Shown in pieces: positions 13,733 to 20,520 of a stretch of DNA of 33,848 nt. Positions within the stretch are counted from its first letter, which is position 1, and each line of letters begins with the position of its first letter. The stretch is from a virus (taxonomy: Duplodnaviria > Heunggongvirae > Uroviricota > Caudoviricetes). The notes beneath the pieces are model-generated. The model saw only the letters and a list, made by a program, of their open reading frames with translations, did not search any database and was not told the origin of the DNA. The translations under genes were made by a program, and so were the position numbers. Where the stretch lies: IMG/VR virus record IMGVR_UViG_2925877141_000002; one strand, 5' to 3'.

Positions 13733-13749
13733 TTTTGTGGAGTAAGTTG

Positions 13750-14127
13750 ATGCGTGATATTCAGATGGTTCTTGAGCGTTGGGGGGCATGGGCGGCTAAT
13801 AATCATGAAGATGTGACCTGGTCGTCCATTGCCGCCGGTTTTAAGGGATTAATTCCTTCAAAAGTAAGATCTCGTCCGCAATGCTGTGACGATGACGCGA
13901 TGATCATTTGTGAATGTATGGCTCGCCTGAAAAAAAACAACAGCGATTTACATGATTTATTGGTGGACTATTATGTCGGCGGCATGACTTTTATGGCGCT
14001 TGCACGTAAGCATGGGCGATCTGATTGTTGGGTTGGCAGGATGCTCCAGAAAGCTGAGGGCGTAGTGGAGGGCATGCTGATGGTGTTGGATCTCCGATTG
14101 GAGATGGATGCTGATTGTTCGAAATAA
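13750..14127 (+). CDS. Late-gene antiterminator Q (QuuD-like family)
   Basis: [76 protein letters not shown]...; resembles DLP12 QuuD as recalled. Confidence 0.8.
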
Positions 14128-14139
14128 TTAAAGGAAAAG

Positions 14140-14168
14140 TTGCTGTCTGATTTTCATTAGTCTAACAT
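14140..14168 (+). promoter_or_regulatory. Candidate late promoter PR' (TTGCTG-17-TAACAT) just downstream of Q
   Basis: Sigma70-like hexamers with 17-bp spacing, about 60-85 bp upstream of tR'-like terminator. Confidence 0.3.
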
Positions 14169-14226
14169 TTTAAATGTTGGAATCGCAACGTAGTTATTAT
14201 CATATAACAGCTTGTTTCCTGATTTA

Positions 14227-14254
14227 GCCAGCCTCCCCAAAGGCTGGTTTTTTT
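14227..14254 (+). terminator. Intrinsic terminator (tR'-like) downstream of Q
   Basis: GCCAGCC-TCCCCAAA-GGCTGG stem followed by TTTTTTT. Confidence 0.7.
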
Positions 14255-14282
14255 CTAATAAGTATCATTTCGGGTGGGGATT

Positions 14283-14807
14283 TTATTGTTTAACCCATAA
14301 TAGTTCATTGACATTGAATCCCAACTTTTGAGCGGTACGCACATAGTCTGCTTTTACATTATCTGGAATAGTTTGGGTCCTTGCCAGAATCCATAGGTAT
14401 TCTCTGTTCGGACCACTGACAAGAGCATACTTATACTCATCATCCAGCTTGATTACATTATAGCCACCATAGAAGGGGCCAAAAAACGAAACTTTCAACG
14501 CTGCAGTTTTAGTATCTCCAGTAAAGTATGCTTTACCTTCGCTCTCGCTCCATTTGTTTTTCGTTGGATCGTATCCACGGTTAAGTACGCGAATCCCTCC
14601 GTCGTTCCGTTTTTCATAAGTAGCGCTGACCTGTTCCAGACCACGTTCGAACCAGTTCTCGAGGCGAGCTATTTCATACCATTTTCCGAGGTAGCGGTTG
14701 GCGTCAAAATTTGTAATCGGCTGCACACCTTTAGGTGGTGTCGGGGCCTTACATGCTATAAGAGTGAAAGAGAGTGCAATGCCAGTCAACACAGGCCATA
14801 ACTTCAT
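14283..14807 (-). CDS. Outer-membrane lipocalin lipoprotein (Blc-like); prophage cargo
   Basis: 174 aa with lipoprotein signal (...LIAC), lipocalin motifs GKWYEIAR, FFGPFYGGYNVI; resembles chromosomal Blc as recalled. Confidence 0.85.
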   Translation of the reverse strand: MKLWPVLTGIALSFTLIACKAPTPPKGVQPITNFDANRYLGKWYEIARLENWFERGLEQVSATYEKRNDGGIRVLNRGYDPTKNKWSESEGKAYFTGDTKTAALKVSFFGPFYGGYNVIKLDDEYKYALVSGPNREYLWILARTQTIPDNVKADYVRTAQKLGFNVNELLWVKQ

Positions 14808-14999
14808 AATAAATCCTGTACTTTTGATAGTTGAGAGTAAGTATGAAAGATAGATGAGTACGACCGATCACTTAAAGAACTTTCCTACTATATTAGGAAT
14901 AGTCAATAACAGAAAAATTGTCAGTGATGAAGCCAGAAAGGCAATTTAGTCCGTGCACTACAAAGTTTATGTGTTAATGAATTAGTCAAGGGGGAGGAA

Positions 15000-15959
15000 A
15001 TGATAAAAAAACCTGTGATTGGGATCAGCGGTTGTTTGGGCGGTTCTGCTGTTCGTTTTGATGGTGGTCACAAAAGAGATGACTTTTTAATGGACAAATT
15101 AGTGGAATGGGTAACATTCAGACCAGTATGTCCGGAAATGGCTATAGGGCTGCCAGTTCCGCGTCCTGCTCTACGACTTGTGCGCTCGAAGCAAGGAAAT
15201 ATACGGATGTGTTTCAGCCACGACCAGAATGAGGATGTGACAGAGAGAATGACAGAGTTTAGTCGTTCTTATATGGACAAATTAAAGGATGTATCGGGGT
15301 TTGTGGTTTGTGCTAAATCTCCCAGCTGTGGCATGGAGCGCGTGCGTGTCTATGATGAAAATGGTAATCGAGGTCGTAAAGATGGAGTGGGACTATTTAC
15401 GAGCACTTTGATGGAAAAGTTTTCCTGGCTACCGGTTGAAGAGGATGGGCGATTACATGATCCAGTGCTTCGTGAGAATTTTATTGAAAGAGTTTTTGCT
15501 TTGCATGAGCTCAATCACCTTTACAAGGAGAAATTATCAAGAAGAGAGTTATTAGCTTTTCATAGTCGTTATAAGCTTCAGTTGTTGGCGCATAGCCAGG
15601 CAGGCTATAAAGATATGGGACCATTTGTGGCTGCAATACACGAGTGGGCGGACCTTGAATCATACTTTGAGGTGTATCGTGATAATCTGATGGCGATTCT
15701 CAGAAAACCAGCATCACGTAAAAATCACACGAATGTGCTGATGCATATACAGGGGTATTTTAGTAATTACTTAAGTACACGCCAGCGTAAAGAGTTGAGC
15801 GAGGTTATACTTAACTATCGCTTTGGCACATTGCCTCTTCTTGCGCCGTTGACTCTGCTGAAGCATTATCTGGGTGAGTATCCTAATGATTACTTGCTTA
15901 CACAGAATTACTTCGATCCCTATCCGGAAGAACTGGCTCTAAGACTGATGGTGAATTAA
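15000..15959 (+). CDS. DUF523-DUF1722 fusion protein (TudS-like Cys-rich N-domain plus YbgA-like C-domain)
   Basis: 319 aa; N-terminus [12 protein letters not shown]...; strong GGGGGAGG RBS. Confidence 0.65.
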
Positions 15960-16166
15960 CTGTATGCGATATCATCTGAAAGTGATGAGTTCCTGTATGC
16001 AGGATATTTACAATCGTAAAAACTACGCTATGATGCTCATAGTGTCAGTTTTTATAAAAATCCTGTTCACGCTAATAGACTGGCCCCCTGAATCTCCAGA
16101 CAACCAATATCACTTAAATAAGTGATAGTCTTAATACTAGTTTTTAGACTAGTCATTGGAGAACAG

Positions 16167-16532
16167 ATGATTGATGTCTTAGGGCCGGAGAAACGCAGAC
16201 GGCGTACCACACAGGAAAAGATCGCAATTGTTCAGCAGAGCTTTGAACCGGGGATGACGGTCTCCCTCGTTGCCCGGCAACATGGTGTAGCAGCCAGCCA
16301 GTTATTTCTCTGGCGTAAGCAATACCAGGAAGGAAGTCTTACTGCTGTCGCCGCCGGAGAACAGGTTGTTCCTGCCTCTGAACTTGCTGCCGCCATGAAG
16401 CAGATTAAAGAACTCCAGCGCCTGCTCGGCAAGAAAACGATGGAAAATGAACTCCTCAAAGAAGCCGTTGAATATGGACGGGCAAAAAAGTGGATAGCGC
16501 ACGCGCCCTTATTGCCCGGGGATGGGGAGTAA
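16167..16532 (+). CDS. insC: IS2 OrfA (InsC)
   Basis: 121 aa [56 protein letters not shown]... Confidence 0.85.
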
Positions 16533-17395
16533 GCTTAGTCAGCCGTTGTCTCCGGGTGTCGCGTGCGCAGTTGCACGTCATTCTCAGACGAACCGATGAC
16601 TGGATGGATGGCCGCCGCAGTCGTCACACTGATGATACGGATGTGCTTCTCCGTATACACCATGTTATCGGAGAGCTGCCCACGTATGGTTATCGTCGGG
16701 TATGGGCGCTGCTTCGCAGACAGGCAGAACTTGATGGTATGCCTGCGATCAATGCCAAACGTGTTTACCGGATCATGCGCCAGAATGCGCTGTTGCTTGA
16801 GCGAAAACCTGCTGTACCGCCATCGAAACGGGCACATACAGGCAGAGTGGCCGTGAAAGAAAGCAATCAGCGATGGTGCTCTGACGGGTTCGAGTTCTGC
16901 TGTGATAACGGAGAGAGACTGCGTGTCACGTTCGCGCTGGACTGCTGTGATCGTGAGGCACTGCACTGGGCGGTCACTACCGGCGGCTTCAACAGTGAAA
17001 CAGTACAGGACGTCATGCTGGGAGCGGTGGAACGCCGCTTCGGCAACGATCTTCCGTCGTCTCCAGTGGAGTGGCTGACGGATAATGGTTCATGCTACCG
17101 GGCTAATGAAACACGCCAGTTCGCCCGGATGTTGGGACTTGAACCGAAGAACACGGCGGTGCGGAGTCCGGAGAGTAACGGAATAGCAGAGAGCTTCGTG
17201 AAAACGATAAAGCGTGACTACATCAGTATCATGCCCAAACCAGACGGGTTAACGGCAGCAAAGAACCTTGCAGAGGCGTTCGAGCATTATAACGAATGGC
17301 ATCCGCATAGTGCGCTGGGTTATCGCTCGCCACGGGAATATCTGCGGCAGCGGGCTTGTAATGGGTTAAGTGATAACAGATGTCTGGAAATATAG
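16490..17395 (+). CDS. insD: IS2 OrfB (InsD), normally expressed as OrfAB by -1 frameshift
   Basis: 301 aa starting [22 protein letters not shown] (GTG immediately after A6G). Confidence 0.85.
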
Positions 17396-17701
17396 GGGCA
17401 AATCCAGCTAAAGAAAACATTGAGATGCAATTTAATGTTGGTAAACATACCAGCCCCAAACGATTTTATTCAATCTGTTTTTATATGAAGATATTTCAAG
17501 TGAATATTGAGAGTATATAATATTATTATTGCACGCAGCTATTATAATATAACAGATTAGTTTAATGATTTGTTTTTTGTGAGTTAAACACATGGTTTTA
17601 TAGTTGTGATGCAATGAGATTTTCCTTATTGTTGAACTGGCGAATATTGATTTTCCACCTATACTTACCTGGTGTAACCCCAATGATATCAGGTGGATAA
17701 T

Positions 17702-18415
17702 ATGCCATACATATGTTCTATCATTTTGGTGTTGAACTCGTTTGGTGTCCGAATTGGTAAAGAAGATATTTTGTTTAAAAAAGGAAATGCTGTCCTCATT
17801 GAATACAATTTAAAAGATCTTTTTTCGTCAAATACAGATCATCTAATGATCGTAGATGTTGAGGAGAAAACAGTTAATGATTTCTTTAAAAACTACACAC
17901 TCTCACCTTTTTCTGTAAGAAGGTTTTATCCGTCATACTTGATAGTAGAATGTGAAGATTTTTCATTGTTAAAGAACTTGGTTGCATGCTTGAATTGTGA
18001 TAGCAAAACCGTGGATGTAGTTAGAAATCAAATATCACTTGCATGTCTTGCTGTCTTATCTTCAGAGAAAATAGTGCAAAGTTTTTTGTTCGGAAGTCTT
18101 AATAGCTTAGGTTGTAAAGTTAAGGCTATTATTCACTCGGATATCTCAGCGTCATGGAGACTTTGTGATATATCTTCAAGATTATATATGAGCGAGAGTT
18201 TGTTAAAAAGAAAATTAAAAGACGAAGGATTATCGTTTAGTAAATTAATTCTTGAAGAACGAATGATGATGGCGCAAAGATTATTGATCTACAGTAACCA
18301 TACTGTCGGCAAGGTGGCGGGAATATGCGGGTATGACAATGCATCATATTTTGTAAGTGTTTTTAGAGGATATTTTGGTGTGCCTCCGCACCAATATTTA
18401 TCAAGATTTTCTTAG
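17702..18415 (+). CDS. AraC/XylS-family transcriptional regulator, A+T-rich gene
   Basis: C-terminal dual-HTH signature (...SLLKRKLKDEGLSFSKLILEERMMMAQRLL...ICGYDNASYFVSVFRGYFGVPPHQY); AGGTGG RBS; very A+T-rich gene and upstream region. Confidence 0.8.
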   Translation: MPYICSIILVLNSFGVRIGKEDILFKKGNAVLIEYNLKDLFSSNTDHLMIVDVEEKTVNDFFKNYTLSPFSVRRFYPSYLIVECEDFSLLKNLVACLNCDSKTVDVVRNQISLACLAVLSSEKIVQSFLFGSLNSLGCKVKAIIHSDISASWRLCDISSRLYMSESLLKRKLKDEGLSFSKLILEERMMMAQRLLIYSNHTVGKVAGICGYDNASYFVSVFRGYFGVPPHQYLSRFS

Positions 18416-18605
18416 AAGATATGATGTGATGGCATTTTATAAAGTTATTTTTTGAAGTGTAAGATTATACGATATTTTTAGCTACGCCAGAATAATTGCT
18501 GGCGTTTTTCTTTTTGAATAGATGTTCGGGCCTTACGCTAATGTAACTTCTTTCCTTCTTCGAACCAAACCGTGTACACCATCCGTTATCTGCGGAGGTG
18601 AGGCT

Positions 18606-18821
18606 ATGAAATCCATGGATAAGTTAACAACGGGCATCGCCTACAGCACCTCTGCAGGCAGTGCTGGCTACTGGTTTTTACAGTTGCTCGATAAAGTCAC
18701 ACCCTCACAGTGGGCGGCAATAGGTGTATTGGGTAGTCTGGTATTTGGCATGCTGACGTATCTGACAAACCTTTATTTCAAGATTAAAGAAGACAGGCGT
18801 AAGGCTGCGAGAGGAGAGTAA
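18606..18821 (+). CDS. Class II holin / pinholin (phage 21 S21-like) with dual-start motif
   Basis: [71 protein letters not shown]; two in-frame ATGs (18606, 18615); GGAGGTGAGG RBS. Confidence 0.85.
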
Positions 18822-18825
18822 GACA

Positions 18826-19044
18826 ATGACTAAAAACTATGAACTGATTGTGAAAGGGACCCGCAATTTTGAGAATAAAGTTACGGTAATCTTAACGTTA
18901 CAGGACAAAGAACGTTTTGCCGGTGAAATTTTTGATCTGAACATCAACCTTGAGCGACTTGAAGGAGCTGGTTTGGATTATTATGAAGTTACTGCGGTAA
19001 AACATGCCAAACAGTTCTTGAGAGATTTGGCTGAAAAAATATAA
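18826..19044 (+). CDS. Hypothetical protein inserted between holin and endolysin
   Basis: 72 aa, AGGAGAG RBS, starts 5 nt after the holin stop. Confidence 0.45.
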   Translation: MTKNYELIVKGTRNFENKVTVILTLQDKERFAGEIFDLNINLERLEGAGLDYYEVTAVKHAKQFLRDLAEKI

Positions 19045-19062
19045 AGCGGCATTACTGCCGCT
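19045..19062. terminator. Bidirectional hairpin terminator between convergent ORFs (AGCGGCA-TTAC-TGCCGCT)
   Basis: Perfect 7-bp stem exactly between the two stop codons (19042-44 and 19069-71); U-rich tract follows on the minus-strand transcript, weaker on plus. Confidence 0.6.
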
Positions 19063-19068
19063 TAGAAA

Positions 19069-19365
19069 TTATTCAATGTCTGGTAGCTTATCAAAGATTT
19101 CGGATACTCTTATATTTGTCATATAAGCAAATTGAGATTCTGCCAGCTCTTTGGGTGATTTTCCCGCTTTTTCTGAGCCAAAAATTGTTTCTAAAGCCAG
19201 CATGTTATATTTGAGAACCTCTTCTCGAGTTTTACCTGATAATTTTGCGGTAACAGCAATATAAAAAGGCAACACTTTATCCAGAAGGTCGTTGTGTTTT
19301 GTCAGTTGTGGTAATACCACATCAAGTTGCTTACTGATTGGTTTGAATGGATCTATACCGTTCAT
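19069..19365 (-). CDS. Hypothetical protein, opposite strand, inside the lysis cassette
   Basis: 98 aa, AAGGGA RBS; convergent with the 72-aa ORF. Confidence 0.45.
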   Translation of the reverse strand: MNGIDPFKPISKQLDVVLPQLTKHNDLLDKVLPFYIAVTAKLSGKTREEVLKYNMLALETIFGSEKAGKSPKELAESQFAYMTNIRVSEIFDKLPDIE

Positions 19366-19492
19366 AGTTACATTCCCTTATCAGAGGTAATCAGCCATCC
19401 CCCCTTTATTACACACGCCAGTATCCACCACTGACGGGCTGAGTGCTTAACATATCTAGAGATTAGAAACTGATAAATCCTGATAAATATCC

Positions 19493-20520
<1,028 letters not shown>

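Follow-up and report, generated by a model that had tools for sequence, protein, structure and literature searches.

The lambda morons bor and lom are extra genes of the late region that have their own signals and are expressed from the prophage (PMC3594210). In the Pseudomonas phage JBD26, the plus-strand gene atab lies right after terS and is convergent with tab, which encodes an 83-amino-acid (aa) protein on the minus strand and comes with a promoter of its own. Tab is made in the lysogen and blocks the tail assembly of invading phages, and anti-Tab, made from the late operon, binds Tab (PMC10884400). The taiEcA and atiEcA genes of phi80 form a Q-driven noncontiguous operon, and expression of Q lowers the level of Tai (PMC11364771). 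Tha and Ith of Staphylococcus aureus 80alpha follow the same noncontiguous-operon logic (PMC11087260). Here, we analyzed a 33,848-nucleotide (nt) stretch of a Caudoviricetes virus (IMG/VR record IMGVR_UViG_2925877141_000002), referred to below as the window, in which a 72-aa gene on the plus strand (A) and a 98-aa gene on the minus strand (B) sit between a pinholin gene and a gene for a signal-anchor-release (SAR)-type lysozyme.

On balance, we lean toward reading this pair as a copy of an "antisense moron" cassette, a modular and horizontally mobile element carried by lambdoid prophages of enterobacteria, in which B would be made in the lysogen and A would be a neutralizing partner expressed late. 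Elements of this kind, a moron or an antisense gene with a late partner, are known; the protein families and the covarying leader shared by the cassettes are undescribed. As in JBD26, a small late-strand gene right after a late gene is convergent with a small antisense gene (98 aa here, 83 aa for Tab). However, Tab is always found between terS and terL, whereas the A/B cassette has been found in at least six slots; descriptions of Tab mention no shared RNA leader; and the activity of the JBD26 proteins has been demonstrated, whereas A and B are known here from sequence. As in phi80 and 80alpha, a long phage operon is interrupted by an antisense gene, next to which the operon strand carries a small partner. 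The window has this layout, and of the 17 distinct B cassettes compared, 16 have B convergent with a small late-strand gene. Reciprocal expression in lysogeny and lysis is a feature of those two systems and would by analogy apply to A and B. The phi80 pair differs in being divergent, with overlapping 5' ends, and in the size of Tai (204 aa); in 80alpha, the strand roles are reversed, and A and B share no sequence similarity with Tha and Ith. Like bor and lom, the B cassette adds genes to the late region together with signals of its own, of which the promoter is putative, and it would likewise be expressed from the prophage, but the two lambda genes encode envelope proteins and have neither a paired late-strand partner nor a shared structured leader. 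A second antisense open reading frame (ORF) beside atiEcA in phi80, orf65 (99 aa; locus L047, 5230-5529), was also compared with B and rejected as unrelated by BLASTP.

Layout and conservation of the gene pair

The lysis region of the window is a Qin-like cassette (Table 1). An earlier reading made from the sequence only had described a convergent pair of a 72-aa plus-strand ORF and a 98-aa minus-strand ORF, and both were present. It had placed them 25 base pairs (bp) apart around a perfect 7-bp hairpin; a perfect hairpin does lie between the stop codons, but the gap measures 24 nt (19045-19068) and the stem 8 bp. The stop codon of the holin gene (TAA, 18819-18821) precedes the ATG of A by 4 nt, and the ribosome binding site of A (AGGAG) overlaps the end of the holin gene. 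There is thus no room for a promoter of A, and its expression is expected solely from the late transcript that depends on Q. Both genes have a guanine-plus-cytosine (GC) content of 36%, compared to 47 to 52% in the flanking lysis genes. Both proteins are mildly acidic and lack hydrophobic segments, the highest Kyte-Doolittle score over 19 residues being below 0.8.

B is a soluble protein encoded antisense to the late operon. It matched PHROG 25324, a family of unknown function, over its full length (E 7e-61), and no match was found in Pfam, NCBIfam, or PADLOC. Sixteen homologues were collected, of which the 14 aligned over their full length were 57 to 85% identical to B of the window and nearly equal in length. 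A profile search of 1.84 billion representative proteins returned only 6 matches. The AlphaFold2 model of B consists of four helices, with a predicted local distance difference test score (pLDDT) of 85, and fold searches of the PDB and BFVD gave no specific match for it. The ratio of nonsynonymous to synonymous substitution rates (dN/dS) was 0.07 to 0.12 for B, indicating purifying selection, and by this measure B evolves more slowly than A and the other partners. A text search of the literature gave no match for the two protein accessions. In two Escherichia coli isolates from pig carcasses, SEV1 (L282) and SEV4, an IS3 insertion disrupts B in the region equivalent to about 19270-19365 of the window and leaves A intact, and B has a premature stop codon in one viral contig (L021). 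These disruptions recall the transposon inactivation of taiEcA in a phi80 lacking atiEcA, although the likeness is anecdotal.

A is a member of the DUF1327/YdfR family. It passed the gathering threshold of PF07041 with 92.3 bits, against a cutoff of 25, and covers positions 1 to 72 of the 93 in the profile, since A has no variable C-terminal tail. Profile and structure searches, which had been proposed together with the sequence-only reading, thus identified A as a DUF1327 core and placed B only in PHROG 25324, with no specific fold match. A comparison with ydfR had likewise been proposed: A aligns over its whole length, up to its last residue, with residues 1 to 72 of K-12 YdfR and fills the same slot between the holin gene (S) and the endolysin gene (R), hereafter the S-R slot. 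The statement that Qin has a single gene, ydfR, in this slot was correct for K-12, where ydfR is on the same strand as essQ and rrrQ. K-12 ydfR differs from A in encoding a tail of 31 further residues, in overlapping the start of rrrQ, and in having no antisense neighbor; other DUF1327 members bear different tails. The AlphaFold2 model of A has a beta3-alpha fold (pLDDT 78.5). DUF1327 partners of 72 to 73 aa with the same end residue accompany B in diverged cassettes, and those with as little as 32 to 38% identity to A of the window are still members of the Pfam family. A dN/dS of 0.16 to 0.40 for A, and of 0.16 to 0.44 over the partners of B as a whole, indicated purifying selection. The possibility that A is a truncated ydfR pseudogene was rejected because 72- to 73-aa forms with the same end recur at 32 to 66% identity, under purifying selection, and are also found in tail operons. 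Two-hybrid and pull-down assays showed that residues 1 to 72 of K-12 YdfR bind to the RNase E catalytic half; YdfR also copurifies with RNA, and its overproduction in K-12 changed few transcripts (PMC13232886). The binding region is exactly the domain that makes up A, which gives A a possible link to RNA and an independent experimental lead.

The junction hairpin, AAGCGGCA-TTAC-TGCCGCTT, spans 19044-19063. Viewed on the minus strand, its stem (19063-19056 and 19051-19044) encloses a GTAA loop and is followed by a T-tract at 19043-19034; the fold energy on this strand was -16.1 kcal/mol (z -3.95). A consensus terminator scan called the minus strand only, as the stem and then TATATTTTTT. On the plus strand the stem is followed by AGAAATTATTC, and no terminator was called there. 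The hairpin had been taken for a bidirectional terminator, which should be a GC-rich hairpin that has, on either strand, an A-tract on its upstream side and a T-tract downstream. Because the T-tract is on the minus strand only, the junction hairpin is terminator-like for B alone. The accompanying statement, that late transcription must cross a terminator and an opposing gene, was right about the gene, since late transcription runs antisense over B, but the hairpin is one-way, in the direction of B. In diverged cassettes, a GC-rich junction hairpin was kept with compensatory changes in every variant, with stems such as AAGCGGCG/CGCCGCTT and AAGCAG/CTGCTT, or GGCGCGG/CCGCGCC in the type with a 93-aa partner (see below), where the hairpin overlaps the partner stop codon and has no clear U-tract.

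This conservation excludes a chance ORF or a chance hairpin. Loss of conservation in one of the two ORFs had been named as an outcome that would undo the sequence-only reading; both are conserved and under purifying selection across genera, and the opposite-strand gene between holin and endolysin is a genuine conserved gene.

Putative promoter region and structured leader of B

When the regions upstream of B were aligned, a leader of about 80 nt was found to be strongly conserved directly downstream of a -10-like TATGTT (19454-19449, minus strand), and a conserved upstream box, TTTATCAGG, was found at 19487-19479. The region with these two elements is a putative promoter of B. Three stems could be drawn in the leader. 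P1, in which UCAGCC (19442-19437) pairs with GGCUGA (19396-19391), is essentially invariant; P2 pairs 19436-19429 with 19423-19416; and P3 pairs 19404-19400 with 19387-19383. Because the two strands of P3 lie on either side of the 3' strand of P1, P3 would belong either to a pseudoknot or to an alternative fold. The leader also contains a Shine-Dalgarno sequence, AAGGGAA, at 19379-19373. To examine the stems, 20 leaders were aligned with MAFFT; these had been gathered through B homology and were therefore unselected for the leader itself. RNAalifold returned P1 and P2. Compensatory changes were found in 6 of the 8 P2 pairs, and 91% of the cells were paired, compared to 30 to 46% in slid controls. 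P3 stems, differing in sequence, were present in 19 of the 20 leaders. No Rfam 15 covariance model matched either strand of 18300-20100 at an E value of 1 or below, and a text search of the literature gave no match for the leader sequence and no description of the leader.

More copies were sought with two pattern scans of IMG/VR. The first pattern was too loose and gave mostly chance matches, so a stricter pattern with a hairpin filter was used instead; the resulting counts are lower bounds. Among the matches listed, 87 unique leaders had P2 96% paired, compared to 17 to 42% when slid, with 2 to 5 pair types at six positions, and 72 distinct upstream regions gave the consensus AATATCAGG..CCTGGnTAnGGT-N6-TCAGCCC. 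In these 72 regions, a -10-like TAnnnT lies 6 nt upstream of the leader, its TA and final T being more than 90% conserved. In the consensus, the box AATATCAGG lies about 25 to 30 nt upstream of a CCTGGnTA box that adjoins the -10-like hexamer. Together, these boxes make up an inverted repeat, TATCAGG/CCTGGTA, which may be an operator; the window copy retains only the first half of the repeat.

Distribution and exchange of cassettes, partners, and cargos

Among 5,426 complete E. coli genomes, 58 had the identical A/B arrangement. Both A and B carry coding-sequence annotations in RefSeq genomes. The deposited 40-kb genome of Escherichia phage Evi has the order Q-S-A-B(antisense)-R-Rz-terminase. 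Blastn similarity to the essQ-ydfR region of K-12 ends at 18986, inside A, and resumes at 19483; the segment in between (GC content of 38%) stands in place of 137 bp of K-12 Qin. The cassette thus has what the definition of Juhala and Hendrix ascribes to a moron, extra DNA of atypical composition at a gene boundary, and it also has its own terminator, the minus-strand hairpin and T-tract right after the B stop codon.

Homologues of B, with identities of 56 to 85%, were found in prophages of Escherichia, Cronobacter, Serratia, Yersinia, and Buttiauxella, always antisense in the late region, and the cassette was seen at no fewer than six distinct sites within lysis and tail operons. It follows an Rz-like gene in Cronobacter, lies after gpJ or between tail genes in Serratia, and is upstream of an S21-type holin gene in Buttiauxella. 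The tail slots between H and M, between M and L, and between I and J were occupied in Escherichia sp., E. coli, Yersinia, and viral contigs. Two types of B partner were found, the 72- to 73-aa DUF1327 core and a family of 93 to 95 aa. Homology between them was considered and rejected at the sequence level, as the hhalign probability was below 3% in two attempts. The tail-operon copies (L005, L006, L007, L011, L023, and L027) have a strong intrinsic terminator of the late strand on the B-promoter side of the cassette, AGCCACC-TCCG-GGTGGCT followed by TTTTTT in L006 (2793-2810). The window copy lacks this terminator, and its B promoter region abuts the start codon of the endolysin gene (19493).

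Following up partial blastn matches, we found other E. coli prophages in which the same promoter and leader precede antisense genes unrelated to B. These included a 95-aa cargo beside a 75-aa DUF1327 gene in the S-R slot, a 79-aa cargo beside a 104-aa YdfR gene in the same slot, and a 48-aa cargo upstream of another lysis cassette. An opposite-strand gene at this position had been called unexpected; with other cargos also lying beside DUF1327 genes in the S-R slot, and with the layout already known from HK022 morons 22 and 23, Tab/anti-Tab, and Tai/Ati, there are precedents, and the statement was only partly true. In IMG/VR, at least 98 distinct units of leader plus cargo were found, in at least 19 unrelated cargo families. 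Among the matches listed, the cargos are 63 to 210 aa long, most of them 63 to 98 aa, a single cargo family has a Pfam domain (DUF1883), no cargo family rose above noise in PADLOC, and 90 of the 98 leader-driven units are antisense to the flanking long ORFs. At least 220 complete E. coli genomes contain a detectable leader, which is annotated in none of them. It also occurs in 39 phage records, including HK022, HK633, mEp043, mEp213, ES18, SPN3UB, and Stx phages.

In HK022, the gene srb (gp23, 73 aa) lies antisense between gpI and gpJ and is preceded by the same promoter and leader. It is a "moron gene product" in GenBank (NC_002166), where the annotation of moron genes 22 and 23 follows Juhala et al. 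2000. The HK022 pair thus shares with the window the promoter, the leader, and the antisense placement between late genes, and srb represents cargo cluster 0 of the platform; it differs in that srb is unrelated to B and the late-strand partner, gp22, is not a DUF1327 protein. Since the same leader precedes unrelated cargos, srb included, we count B among the cargos of a moron platform that is widespread.

The convergent late-strand neighbors of the leader units, again among the matches listed, were DUF1327 proteins in 16 units, the 93-aa family in 18 units over six cargo families, and others in 49 units. Most of the last were short proteins starting with MTLEQRVEALE; at the 3' end, their genes share 4 to 54 nt with the antisense cargo. 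These proteins, found in L063, L079, L092, L101, L182, L186, L188, L194, and other loci, form a third family, a coiled coil of 51 to 96 aa with varying C termini. A 181-aa partner from Yersinia (L011, 5314-5859) consists of a coiled-coil N terminus of this type fused to the domain of the 93-aa partner. Prophages with a long YdfR (114 aa), such as that of O157 strain 86-24 (L052, 1501-1566), keep about 66 nt resembling the promoter and the 5' end of the leader; this stretch immediately precedes the lysozyme gene and overlaps the ydfR end, and similar matches were found elsewhere. Long tails of YdfR may be what is left of cassettes after loss of the cargo.

Possible roles of A and B, and neighboring DNA

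In the reading that we favor, B would be an autonomous minus-strand transcription unit, with a promoter-like region, a structured leader, its own ribosome binding site, and a hairpin terminator that would prevent B transcripts from extending, antisense, into A and the holin gene. B alone would be expressed in the lysogen, for an accessory function that would most likely be anti-phage or host modulating. Upon induction, Q-modified RNA polymerase would pass the hairpin, which has no U-tract on that strand, cross B, its leader, and its promoter in the antisense direction, and reach the endolysin gene. Lambdoid Q-modified RNA polymerase reads through terminators, and with antitermination of this type the junction hairpin would be no obstacle. 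The antisense late transcription would lower B expression by polymerase collision or by formation of double-stranded RNA; concurrently, A would be produced and would neutralize B, either as a protein or through the leader of its mRNA. This proposed logic is the same as that demonstrated for Tab/anti-Tab, TaiEcA/AtiEcA, and Tha/Ith. If it is right, A and B would be a new protein pair in a recently recognized class, in which a gene of the lysogen is silenced or neutralized by the late transcription of the phage itself, and it would suggest a context for DUF1327/YdfR, recently identified as an RNase E binder.

Several observations weigh against this reading. Partner and cargo are combinatorial and not strictly cognate: two unrelated partner families accompany B, the 93-aa family occurs with six cargo families, and the B tree does not track partner type, from which it follows that partners have been swapped repeatedly. 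One B cassette (L042) has no small partner, and DUF1327 genes are common without an antisense gene, as in K-12 and O157 strain 86-24. BLASTP and hhalign comparisons of A and B with Tab, anti-Tab, TaiEcA, and AtiEcA gave no similarity, and PADLOC gave no match. A sigma-70 consensus scan did not call the window promoter (8 of 12 positions matched), and the folding energy of the leader as a single sequence was unexceptional (z -0.08), so that the case for its structure rests on covariation. Finally, the roles proposed for A and B are drawn from architecture and sequence.

Some of these points would suit two functionally independent genes, a reading that we regard as rather unlikely. B would then be a stand-alone moron of the lysogen and A a late protein acting on RNase E or RNA for the benefit of the phage, and the two would be neighbors through a recombination unit spanning from inside the partner gene to the conserved leader. 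The recombination joint inside A (18986/18987) fits such a unit, as do the shuffling of partner and cargo families, the partnerless B of L042, and the wide occurrence of DUF1327 without an antisense gene; moreover, YdfR residues 1 to 72 bind the N-terminal half of RNase E and RNA in the absence of any B. On the other hand, stand-alone DUF1327 cores of 72 to 73 aa travel with B into tail operons that have no resident ydfR, and a few partner families recur over at least six slots, rather than any adjacent late gene. The shared atypical GC content of A and B and the purifying selection on both also speak against independence.

The recurrence of the leader raises a broader proposal, which we consider doubtful, that the promoter and leader are an undescribed, widespread cis-regulatory platform from which lambdoid prophages express many unrelated small antisense accessory genes, that the small late-strand partners (DUF1327, the 93-aa family, and the MTLEQRVEALE family) are matching late off-switches, and that DUF1327 is a phage RNase E adaptor acting on the leader RNA. 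If this were true, the leader units would form a ready-made catalogue of new prophage defense or self-immunity pairs. The promoter and leader already serve as a simple sequence handle, which has retrieved at least 19 uncharacterized small cargo families and offers a route to new accessory or defense genes and their partners. In a related reading, A would be a late RNA-level off-switch, in which the DUF1327 core would recognize the leader of the antisense mRNA and deliver it to RNase E, thereby silencing any cargo at the switch from lysogeny to lysis. RapZ, an adaptor that hands RNA to RNase E, provides a comparison. Because partners and cargos are combinatorial and the leader is constant, an action of A on leader RNA is a serious subhypothesis, although as an account of the pair we hold it to be improbable. 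In its favor, the promoter and leader are all that the cassettes have in common, with cargos and partners varying; behind this leader, DUF1327 is found with three unrelated cargos (B and the 95- and 79-aa proteins); and YdfR 1 to 72 binds the catalytic half of RNase E, and YdfR copurifies with RNA. Most leader units, however, have partners other than DUF1327 (the 93-aa family and the MTLEQRVEALE type), YdfR overproduction altered few K-12 transcripts, and the recognition of the leader by A is putative.

A toxin-antitoxin or addiction pair, raised as a possibility in the sequence-only reading, is very improbable. The module is small and has two genes, one of which evolves faster than the other, and B is broken with A intact in the two strains with IS3 and in the viral contig with the premature stop. 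Nevertheless, the genes are convergent and not cotranscribed, unlike the bicistronic genes of type II systems, neither A nor B matched a toxin-antitoxin or defense family in Pfam, NCBIfam, or PADLOC, and B is confined to the late regions of prophages. An antitoxin made only from the late operon, as A would be, could not protect the lysogen. The other suggestion, an anti-lysis or lysis-timing regulator specific to the pinholin/SAR-endolysin cassette, agrees with the S-R position in the window and in phage Evi but is most unlikely, because the same cassette occurs in tail operons (H-M, M-L, I-J, and after J) and beside unrelated lysis cassettes (upstream of a holin gene or after an Rz-like gene), and neither protein has a hydrophobic segment.

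Table 1. Features of the window in and around the A/B cassette
Feature	Position	Strand	Basis or remark
S21-type pinholin gene	18606-18821	+	PF04971, E 2e-34; annotated essD at the identical loci of RefSeq; final late gene ahead of the cassette
Gene A, DUF1327/YdfR core	18826-19044	+	PF07041, E 2e-26
Junction hairpin and T-tract	19034-19063	-	Terminator scan
Gene B, orphan four-helix protein	19069-19365	-	PHROG 25324
Structured 5' leader of B	19366-19444	-	Alignment, RNAalifold, covariation
Putative B promoter region	19449-19487	-	Conserved boxes
Promoter region and leader shared with other loci	19366-19492	-	Also in L050, L051, L053, L281, and some 100 loci of IMG/VR
Mosaic segment compared to K-12 Qin (final 19 codons of A, hairpin, B, leader, promoter region)	18987-19482		blastn
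SAR-type endolysin gene	19493-20026	+	PF00959, E 2e-23; annotated rrrQ; next late gene after the cassette
Rz-like DUF2514 gene	20023-20520		Followed by cspI-like genes
Q antiterminator gene	13735-14127		Present in the window
Lipocalin-like gene	14283-14807	-	Q-to-holin accessory DNA
YbgA-family gene	15000-15959		Q-to-holin accessory DNA
IS2 copy	16076-17406		Q-to-holin accessory DNA
AraC-type regulator gene	17693-18415		Q-to-holin accessory DNA
Terminator-like hairpin	18484-18505	+	Q-to-holin accessory DNA

Between the Q gene and the holin gene, the window carries about 4.4 kb of accessory DNA (13735-18505). If late transcription is still functional, it must cross the whole of this stretch.

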